64,000 nucleotides of DNA. It comes from an uncultured Chlamydiae bacterium (GTDB lineage Bacteria > Chlamydiota > Chlamydiia > Chlamydiales > JAJFMA01). The stretch is from assembly GCA_963713615.1 (NCBI GenBank), contig CAVQMM010000001.1, positions 2,656,001-2,720,000 on the forward strand, written 5' to 3'. Position numbers and translations under genes: made by a program. This document shows positions 44,207 to 46,280 of the stretch, piece by piece. The first letter of the stretch is position 1; each line of letters opens with the position of its first letter. The notes below the pieces were generated by a model that saw nothing but the letters and a program-made list of their open reading frames with translations, did not search any database and had not been told where the DNA came from.

Positions 44207-44359
44207 GCAAAACGGTTTTAGCAGCCTGTAGGGCTGCCATAAAGCGCATGCATAAATGGTGTTTGTAAACTGGCATCTTGTAGAAGTCCTTCAGACTGCG
44301 AAATCCCTTCCTGGCATATACCATGGCGATGCCATGGCCTGTTGCAATATCGACCCTTC
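44207..44359. repeat. Family B repeat, left part (interrupted by IS110)
   Basis: Matches 40718-40858 up to ...gacccttc; the continuation gggcctgggaaggga is found at 46126. Confidence 0.9.
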
Positions 44360-44371
44360 TACCATAGGATT

Positions 44372-44600
44372 TTGCAAACGATTATCGACGGTAATAGGAA
44401 AAGACAAAAAACATTTCTCTAAGGTATCATTTTGGCCGACGAAGGTGTGGCCGTGTGCCCTTAGCGAATGTTTGTTCGCCTGGCCCGATATGCCGCCTTC
44501 GTCGTTTGCATCATCCAATAATTCCGTTCGGGATGGTGCCAATCTTCTGATTGTGGCTCTGTAAGTAGAAGTGGAATTTGGGTGAAATTTAACGCTCACA
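44372..44600 (+). ncRNA. Putative IS110 bridge RNA (boundaries approximate)
   Basis: Two stem-loops carry guides matching the target (GCCCTT 44457-62, GGCCCGA 44482-88) and the donor junction (CGGGATG 44529-35, GTAGA 44565-69). Confidence 0.75.
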
Positions 44601-44622
44601 AACACTTAACAGGGCATTTATC

Positions 44623-45819
44623 ATGCAAAATCAGTCCGAACTTCGTATTTGTCTAGATATCGGTAGCGTTCGACACTATGTAGCCATAGGCTTGTCCACA
44701 GGAGAACGCATCGATGGATTTTATCTAAACCACACTTCTGAAGACATTGAGCAGTTTTTTGAGAAAATTGAGAAGCTTAGAATTTCCTATAACATGCCTG
44801 TTGTCATGGCTATGGAGGGGTTTAATGGCTATGCTAGACCCATCGATAGATATGCTCTTGATCACGGATATTCTTTGTATAGTGTCAACAACATGAAATT
44901 GGCTAGATTTAAGGAAGTTTTTCCTGGTCCAGCCAAAACAGATCCAATTGACGCTTGGGCTATTTTTAGCTTGTTTCAAGTTCAAGAGACCTTACCGTTG
45001 GCAAAAAATATTCTGCAGAAAGTAGAGCCTCCACCGGTATGCAACGAGCAACTTAAACATATTTCAAGGCGTCGTAGAGAGTTGGTAAAAGAAAAGACAA
45101 GAATCATAAATCGACTTCAAGGGGATCTACAGGCTGTTTGCCCCGGTCTACTGTCTATTACAAAAAATCCAGCAAATCTTTGGTTTCTACGATTTCTTGC
45201 TTCGAAGGAAGACATGACCATGTTGCTTCGAATGCAAAAAAGAAGCCTGTTGCAAATCAAGGGCGTTGGAGAGGTTTATGCAGAGGAAATTCAGAAATGG
45301 CAAAAGACGGCTAAGTTCTCTTCAAAGGTTGAGTGGATAGGAAAATTAATAGTACGAGATGTCAGAAGGCTACTCGAGATGCTAGATGAAATAGCGCAGT
45401 TGGAGGTATTGATAGAGGGTTTGATCCCACAATCCAAGATAGCATCTCGGATTGAATCTATTCCTGGATATGGTTCCATTTGTGCCGCAGAACTCGCTGG
45501 AGAGATTGGTAGTATCGATCGGTTTAAGTCGGAGGCTAGTCTAGCGCTCTACTTGGGAATAGGAATTCTGAACAAGAGTTCTGGCCAATATGAGGGGTCT
45601 CGATCGCCTCGAAATATTAACTGGAGGGGAAAGGGAGCTATGATGACCGGAGCTGCTCGACATATACAACTATGTGATGAGGCTGCACAGTACTACAAGA
45701 AGAAGAGAGCAGAGGGAAAAAAACATAACCAAGCAGTACGAGCATTTGCCCGTCATATGATAAGAGTAATATGGTCGATACTCATACATGACAGGGATTA
45801 CCGTCAGAAGGAAGACTGA
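44623..45819 (+). CDS. IS110-family transposase/recombinase
   Basis: DEDD RuvC motifs (CLDIG, AMEG, KTDPIDA), then SIPGYG...ELAGEIG..DRF and a KSSG catalytic serine region; intact reading frame. Confidence 0.95.
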   Translation: MQNQSELRICLDIGSVRHYVAIGLSTGERIDGFYLNHTSEDIEQFFEKIEKLRISYNMPVVMAMEGFNGYARPIDRYALDHGYSLYSVNNMKLARFKEVFPGPAKTDPIDAWAIFSLFQVQETLPLAKNILQKVEPPPVCNEQLKHISRRRRELVKEKTRIINRLQGDLQAVCPGLLSITKNPANLWFLRFLASKEDMTMLLRMQKRSLLQIKGVGEVYAEEIQKWQKTAKFSSKVEWIGKLIVRDVRRLLEMLDEIAQLEVLIEGLIPQSKIASRIESIPGYGSICAAELAGEIGSIDRFKSEASLALYLGIGILNKSSGQYEGSRSPRNINWRGKGAMMTGAARHIQLCDEAAQYYKKKRAEGKKHNQAVRAFARHMIRVIWSILIHDRDYRQKED

Positions 45820-46125
45820 GTTAGTTTAGCAAACGGGCTTTGTTCTGTTTGGCCTGAATGAACAAGGTCAGCAAATTCGGCGATGTTAGCTGAGCAGAAA
45901 AGGAGCACGGCTACTCTGCTTCGGCAACCCCATAGGAGTTGTATACAACCTTCCTAAGTAAATTCACCGTGTCCCTTCGCAGTTGAAAGGAGCACGGCTA
46001 CTCTACTTCGGCTCTATAAATTTAGCAAAATTAGAAAATAATTAAAAGTTTCAAAACCGAAGGAATTGGCATCGAAAAATCGCCTGAAAGCTACGAAAAA
46101 TCTTGAAAAATTCTAGCGGGATGTC

Positions 46126-46280
46126 GGGCCTGGGAAGGGAGAAAAGCCTGTCTTTCCAGACTGGATAGTGCCATACCACTTAAGCTCTCTAGAATCGCCT
46201 TCTCACAAAAAAAGGTAACCTTTTTTCCCGAGAATCGATTCTCAAGGGCTCAAATAATTTTGCAATTACCTCAAAGGGAC
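46126..46280. repeat. Family B repeat right part plus shared flank
   Basis: Matches 40859-41000 (gggcctgggaaggga...tttccagactggata.tgccataccacttaagctct...tgcaattacctca). Confidence 0.85.

Follow-up and report, generated by a model that had tools for sequence, protein, structure and literature searches.

Between positions 44360 and 46123 of the window, by which we mean the whole 64,000-nucleotide stretch that was analysed, lies an IS110-family insertion sequence of 1,764 bp. It is flanked by the dinucleotide TC on its left (44358-44359, + strand) and on its right (46124-46125, +), both cores being placed by comparing filled with empty sites; the left junction reads CGACCCT-TC-TACCAT and the right junction CGGGATG-TC-GGGCC. 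A first-pass annotation had put the element at 44351..46130, with TC at both junctions. The element is real and the two TC cores are confirmed, although the earlier start takes in target DNA. The left non-coding end carries a predicted bridge RNA and is followed by an intact recombinase gene (44623..45819, +; 398 aa) and by a right non-coding end (45820-46123, +) that at 304 bp exceeds those of most relatives. A 27-bp direct duplication (45899-45925 and 45986-46012) was noted inside this long right end. Further along the window, at 47794-50781 (-), several type II secretion pseudopilin/GspK-like genes follow one another; the two nearest clusters of the 305-aa protein encoded there are mostly from Chlamydiota, and the host probably belongs to this phylum.

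The recombinase has an N-terminal DEDD domain (PF01548) and a C-terminal domain (PF02371) with the conserved serine; residues D12, E65, D107, D110 and S320-G321 are conserved, and the protein passes the NCBIfam IS110 model (173.7 bits against a cut-off of 140). In an alignment of the window protein with 50 of its 120 listed homologues, no variation is seen at D12, E65, D110 or G321, and D107 and S320 are almost invariant. Domains, catalytic residues and family model therefore agree on the IS110 membership that had been assigned. The further description as an ortholog of IS621 does not hold: the protein is a distant relative, linked to IS621 by a profile search (E 6.5e-13), and a single-sequence PDB search with the recombinase gave no match. 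Like other IS110 elements, this one has a short core and a specific target and is without terminal inverted repeats. It falls outside the IS621-like subgroup, having a TC overlap rather than a CT core and no close protein identity, and outside the IS1111 group, since the conserved RNA lies in the left end and the right end is 27-58 bp long in most relatives.

Copies of the element and the repeat they occupy

Nine copies of the element are present genome-wide, differing at a single base that splits them 5 versus 4. Seven are whole, one is interrupted in its gene by IS21 (G000:C1:3548254-3551532, L120) and one in its right end by IS66 (G000:C1:1751221-1754087, L121). All nine left ends and all nine right ends are found at one repeat position and in one orientation, and in each case the filled site equals the empty site plus the element and one TC, so that insertion was scarless in 9/9 copies. 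The annotation expected every copy in GACCCT-TC-GGGCC; eight are there, and the ninth is at the variant TGCCCT-TC-GGGCT, in which TG replaces GA at left-side target positions 3-4. Copies at unrelated sites, named in advance as evidence against the proposal, were not seen among the nine. A tenth insertion at the same repeat position is a stub (G000:C1:678055-678080, L119) with a correct left junction and 16 bp of left end followed by unrelated DNA, and it is present also in run X4.

Three copies share near-identical 80-nt flanks and may not be independent insertions. The other six have flanks that are distinct close to the junctions, and one of them sits in a diverged array beside a Y1 transposase gene. 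The whole element with repeat flanks is also present in another sample (contigs of run X2), and in one contig of run X5 the right end is joined to a flank that matches the genome once, at an empty site; from this single contig, the filled site suggests recent movement. A circle junction was not found in the contigs of 8 of the 22 listed runs, contigs being a product from which rare forms are dropped. Two RNA runs cover the left end, gene and right end alike at a depth of 2-6, coverage that we set aside as evidence of expression because DNA could give the same depth. Near-identical copies and one polymorphic site speak for the label "active" that had been given to the element; the label is nevertheless overstated.

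The repeat that receives the element has a core of about 55 bp with two hairpins, and insertion takes place in the loop of the second, a small hairpin (A/G)CCC-TTC-GGGC located 20 bp from the other. The left half of the core interrupted in the window (44321..44357, +) consists of a CCATGG-n5-CCATGG hairpin, a linker and target-left CGACCCT (44351-44357); the right half of the repeat (46126..46272, +) extends from target-right GGGCC through the terminal motif GCAATTACCTC. Four empty targets remain in the window, exactly where they had been reported, at 15958..15972 (-), 16151..16165 (+), 40347..40361 (-) and 40849..40863 (+), compared with 0.03 expected in shuffles. The last two lie in the left and right arms of a modular repeat element (40265-40993). 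Genome-wide there are 256 empty exact 15-mer targets, rising to 261 with an 11-nt pattern, and nearly all perfect guide matches in the genome lie within the repeat. The consensus of the 261 empty sites is near-invariant over the repeat core, and the 28-nt core was found in 0/6 other genomes of the family.

The cores are arranged in inverted pairs inside mosaic modules of 430 and 752 bp that have inverted GAGGTAATTGC ends, the commonest spacings among the 261 sites being 195 and 515 bp. We counted 248 GAGGTAATTGC module ends (examples are window 40265-40993 and G000:C1:309695-310446 and 329023-329454); they lie at a distance of 4-5 bp from GGAC/GTCC words that belong to short AT-rich repeats, and what look like direct repeats of 4-5 bp are frequent. 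A search for a partner transposase of the 430- and 752-bp modules found none. The idea that GAGGTAATTGC ends flank a Y1 gene was rejected, as the motif occurs in 0/6 Y1 loci, and so were the 3,055-bp versions of the repeat as an autonomous parent, these being the 752-bp element plus an IS66-like insert. Such an IS66-like element was recognised, by visual inspection of ends and ORFs, in six repeat modules (G000:C1:598665, 938906, 1312531, 1348953, 2131917 and 2277289), which means that several mobile elements nest in this repeat family.

The genome has 6 Y1 HUH transposase hits. Directly after one Y1 gene, and on that side alone, comes an array that comprises 13 empty variant cores together with the ninth IS110 copy (G000:C1:3243391-3248900; L092, L104), and empty variant sites number just 14 in the whole genome. 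The protein of this gene passes the IS200 model narrowly (57.6 bits against 55) and fails the RAYT model NF047646 (22.4 bits against 80); the target repeat does not have a canonical RAYT partner. Its Y---Q--HH signature is that of Y1 subclass 1.2 (PMC6006769), a subclass assignment made by motif alone. Homologous repeat copies stand beside Y1 homologues in two other genomes, G101 and G402. In a sister species a homologous core immediately precedes a 63% homologue of the protein, and another family member (G402) has 205 copies of the small hairpin, one of them about 110 bp from a 45% Y1 homologue. As in REPs and REPINs, the repeat is a high-copy palindrome, occurs in inverted pairs and flanks a Y1 HUH gene. 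The term "REP-like" used in the annotation is fair, given that a Y1 HUH transposase gene adjoins the palindrome both here and in two kin genomes; it is by this association that the target resembles REPs, and the Y1 protein would be the agent that spreads it. Two further Y1 genes each have a palindromic repeat family of their own (L090, G000:C1:1041283-1044642; L091, 3871541-3874882).

Predicted bridge RNA and junction promoter

The predicted bridge RNA extends over 44372..44590 (+), its ends being estimated from the promoter and from the last conserved stem. The predicted target-binding loop (44438..44503, +) is formed by an outer stem (44438-44451/44492-44503) and an inner stem (44464-44479). 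By comparison with the target, it contains a left target guide TGCCCTT (44456..44462, +) and a right target guide GGCCCGA (44482-44488, +) that is 7/7 complementary to the core and target-right, followed by a handshake base U (44489, +) predicted to form a wobble pair with donor position 7 (G). The predicted donor-binding loop with its outer stems (44513..44584, +) is closed by AATTCC (44520-44525) and GGAATT (44573-44578) together with a flanking helix. It contains a left donor guide CGGGATG (44529..44535, +), identical to donor-left at 46117-46123, a right donor guide GTAGA (44565-44569, +) and a handshake base A (44570, +), whose predicted partner is T at target position 7.

The two left-end stem-loops described in the annotation are borne out as a structured fold with two guide loops that covary across relatives. 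Loop 1 folds with a z-score of -4.64 (0/200 shuffles as good) and loop 2 with -3.05 (1/200). An Rfam scan of the window gave no family match. In single-sequence and consensus folds alike the guides partly pair within the RNA itself. The guides had been called readable, and the words GCCCTT (44457-44462), GGCCCGA, CGGGATG and GTAGA are where they were said to be; the left target guide is, however, imperfect. Against the common target it makes 5 Watson-Crick pairs and one G-T wobble, leaving the core C unpaired, and against the variant beside the Y1 gene it pairs 7/7. Of the two target guides, the left one therefore fits the variant better and the right one fits the common form better. The left donor guide does not reach the core; relative to IS621, its end is shifted back by 1 base in the window and by 2 bases in the relatives.

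The annotation also proposed a promoter, TTGAAA-N17-TACCAT, in the excised circle. Both hexamers of this predicted junction promoter are in place, the -35 TTGAAA at 46103..46108 (+) and the -10 TACCAT, which is also donor-right and is kept in relatives, at 44360..44365 (+), and in the joined sequence 17 bp separate them. A spacer of 17 recurs in 68/68 right ends found among the window and 80 relatives, with a search pattern that allowed 13-18. The right ends of 67 relatives read ATGT-TC, and the window donor, ending ATG-TC, is one base shorter than in 67/67 of them; one extra A after the -35 hexamer keeps the window spacer at 17 despite the shorter donor. A small alignment of 7 right ends did not resolve the position of the one-base indel. 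In the linear left end, a promoter scan gave 2 weak sites against 1.0 expected.

Covariation among relatives and a probable change of target

By profile, the element was found in 2/400 scored genomes of the phylum, host included; the other element is 60% identical and carries the ancestral G-rich guide. The word "chlamydial" in the annotation is accordingly too strong: judged by this distribution, the element is not chlamydial by descent. As relatives we took the best 80 of at least 476 metagenome loci, the set of 80 that span the protein from end to end being made up of 79 metagenome loci and the phylum hit. Their proteins are about 50-60% identical to that of the window element. Usable among the 80 and the window were 64 target loops, 54 left junctions with guide, 52 right junctions with guide and 68 right ends. 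A scan of the genome collection with the single protein gave 4 loci, none usable for both ends, and the best rows of a plasmid search had 26-27% identity.

The left ends of the relatives align with the window left end. Their junctions mostly read GGGG-TC-TACCAT on the left and GGGATGT-TC-AG on the right, with G-run left guides, and they insert at sites with varied flanks. Read from these junctions, the TC core is common to the whole clade and the derived feature is the target. The TIRYT consensus GGGG[AT][CG]A[CG] fits the target of the relatives, and one relative lies a short way upstream of a gene that resembles RAYTs (78.4 bits, the cut-off being 80). We noted two unusual loci. In L005 (about 430-445), the nearest of the metagenome relatives, the left junction carries one additional T, which would fit retention of donor position 7; no right end was found for this locus. 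L058 has CC at the left junction, matched by its left target and right donor guides, and TC at the right junction.

Covariation was assessed in the window left end aligned with those of 36 of the 80 relatives, chosen for a left end of standard length. RNAalifold predicts 37 pairs for these 37 left ends, 13 of them with double changes. Pairing in the outer helices reaches 84.9%, with 88 double changes, a level that none of 500 shuffles and none of the slid controls (28-50%) attained, and the right donor guide pairs with donor-right in 99.0% of cells with 6 double changes (0/500 shuffles as good; slid controls 14-41%); the relatives are kin, so these counts overstate independence. Target-side and handshake counts are hand tallies made without a shuffle test. 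In 49/51 relatives the right guide pairs with the two bases that come directly after the core, and among the 10 relatives with a target-right unlike AG there are 7 matching guide changes, 1 wobble and 2 failures. GGAATG donor guides accompany GGAATG donors in 4/4 cases. The left target guide is looser: 3/5 unusual guides in relatives match their target, and 6 G-run left guides face targets with a hard mismatch. Guides that fail to covary had been listed as evidence against a bridge RNA; in the relatives they do covary with target and donor.

Against this background the window stands apart. It is the sole one of 54 with CCCT before the core and has the sole left guide with CCCT. The handshake bases named for IS621 (PMC11208158) pair with position 7 of the opposite DNA in the relatives, and both are changed in the window: the target-loop base is A opposite donor T in 51/51 relatives and U opposite G here, and the donor-loop base is C opposite target G in 49/50 relatives and A opposite T here. 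This placement matches that described for IS621 and therefore favours a numbering in which TC occupies positions 8-9. The window is thus alone in having changed its two target guides, its two handshake bases and one donor base, all in step with its target. The claim that the element has its own specificity is upheld, its target differing from the G-rich sites of the relatives and its guides having changed accordingly. The retargeting is one event, and its direction rests on the majority, without a tree, because no intermediate closer than 60-64% identity was found among the relatives.

The genome also contains 20 sites of the ancestral type, GGGGTCAGRYC, and 0 of them hold a copy. Clusters of GGGGTCAGGCC were noted at G000:C1:1464743-1466860 and 1489606-1492181, some around a Y1 hit in a 344-aa frame (L093). 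By its motifs, this is a TIRYT-like locus with the ancestral target of the clade, unused by the IS110 element.

Competing readings and comparison with known systems

We regard it as highly probable that this IS110 insertion sequence is directed by its predicted two-loop bridge RNA to one position of a 260-copy palindromic repeat, and that it has likely been re-aimed from the G-rich target of its relatives. By analogy with IS621 (PMC11208160, PMC11208158), the element would leave as a circle whose joined ends switch on the RNA; the target loop would pair with both strands around TC and the donor loop with the circle junction, and after top-strand exchange the two handshake bases would pair with the opposite DNA and drive insertion. 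Weak excision, possibly with single-strand release, has been described (PMC13626964, 10.64898/2026.08.31.748434) and would agree both with copies that multiply and with contigs in which no circle is seen.

Other readings keep the same system and alter one part of it. The DNA hairpins of the repeat could be needed beside the guides, with the recombinase reading structure as in ISPpu10, for which a stem-loop gate is reported (10.64898/2026.03.19.712850). The short left guide and the location of all insertions in full repeat cores are in keeping with such a gate, which we consider possible; yet the 256-261 guide matches are nearly all in the repeat, so that no gate is needed to give the pattern, and the insertion sites of relatives have varied flanks. 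It is unlikely, in our view, that the cut falls one base further left, in an N-T core as in IS621 (TT in the target, GT in the donor), with the shared C as the first base after the cut and TC only as the visible overlap. Position-9 T is almost invariant among IS621 relatives (PMC11208158), the window left target guide ends at T with the left donor guide ending one base earlier, as in IS621, and UAU after the right target guide would pair with donor ATG. In the relatives, however, the left target guide spans the full TC and both right guides end on T, the next base pairs with the opposite DNA in the IS621 pattern only if TC is positions 8-9, and the CC left junction of L058 comes with matching left target and right donor guides.

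Two further readings take the guides or the movement away. Copies might have spread mainly by recombination or gene conversion between repeats after one or few insertions, leaving an element that is now idle. The repeat is abundant and mosaic, three copies have near-identical flanks, two are broken by IS21 and IS66, and the contigs of 8 runs have no circle, but six copies have distinct flanks, one of them in the diverged array beside the Y1 gene, seven copies are intact and another sample has an additional filled site, and we hold this reading to be quite improbable. That the guides match by chance and the protein alone picks the site is scarcely credible, short as the guides are (just 5-7 nt): four guides and two handshake bases are in the expected order within covarying loops, and they change with target and donor across the 80 relatives.

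On the favoured reading, that of a re-aimed bridge RNA, a lineage targeting GGGG-TC-AG, in TIRYT-type inverted repeats of Y1 transposases, would have entered this genome by horizontal transfer. The left and right target guides (LTG, RTG) and both handshake bases would then have changed, with one donor base lost and one spacer base regained, and the element would now use the hairpin loop of a different Y1-associated repeat. We lean slightly towards a wider view, in which a widespread, uncharacterised clade of bridge recombinases of about 400 aa cuts at a TC core and parasitises Y1 HUH repeats. Within this clade the present element would have been completely reprogrammed in nature, in its two target guides, its two handshake bases, the length of its donor and its promoter spacer. 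Its new target would be a second class of Y1 repeat, and the copies that stand beside the Y1 gene would be those to which it was fitted first.

The mechanism is known, and this is no new kind of system. Covariation of guide and target across thousands of elements has been published (PMC11208160), as have natural target changes (PMC11187229). What the locus offers is a natural experiment: six determinants, in RNA and DNA, appear to have been rewritten jointly in one lineage. This puts the handshake rule to the test beyond the IS621 subgroup and illustrates how an element of this type can switch to another family of repeats in a new host. If the wider view given above is true, a ready wild-type/reprogrammed pair and a core disfavoured by IS621 would come with it. 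The published screens consulted select CT or GT cores, so that a TC clade, if TC is the true register, would make further sites accessible to bridge editing. The element might in addition rearrange the genome, since its roughly 260 targets are found on both strands. In the literature found we saw nothing on the clade, the TC core or a chlamydial case, although ISfinder or supplements may list members, and among the papers listed TIRYT and IS110 came up together only in the classification paper (PMC6006769).

As described for IS621 (PMC11208160, PMC11208158) and ISCro4/IS622 (10.1101/2025.05.14.653916), the element has DEDD RuvC and Ser Tnp domains, a left-end RNA with LTG/RTG and LDG/RDG loops (predicted here), handshake bases opposite position 7 of the other DNA, a junction promoter (likewise predicted here), REP-type insertion and a G-T wobble in the left target guide. 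It differs from them in its distant protein (398 aa compared with a chain of 328 aa), in the TC overlap instead of CT, in the 5' part of the RNA, which is predicted to take part in pairing around the target loop where theirs makes a separate stem-loop, and in its shorter left guides, its 7-nt right target guide and a right end that is longer than the left. ISPpu9 and ISPpu10 of Pseudomonas putida (PMC12288879, 10.64898/2026.03.19.712850) are likewise multi-copy IS110 elements in one repeated intergenic palindrome, in another repeat and host. The ISEc21/ISMch6 seekRNA pair (PMC11187229) is alike in showing a natural guide change with a corresponding target change, there of 3 bases in one guide and one copy, whereas the window element, present in 9 copies, has changed in its two target guides, its two handshake bases and the length of its donor. 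Among the Y1 classes of PMC6006769, the repeat consensus of subclass 2.1/TIRYT fits the target of the relatives and the signature of subclass 1.2 is shared by the Y1 gene beside the variant array. Subclass 1.2 is there described as generally without typical IS200 end structures, in passages that name no repeat; unlike it, the 1.2-like genes found here flank a repeat with 200+ copies in two genomes.
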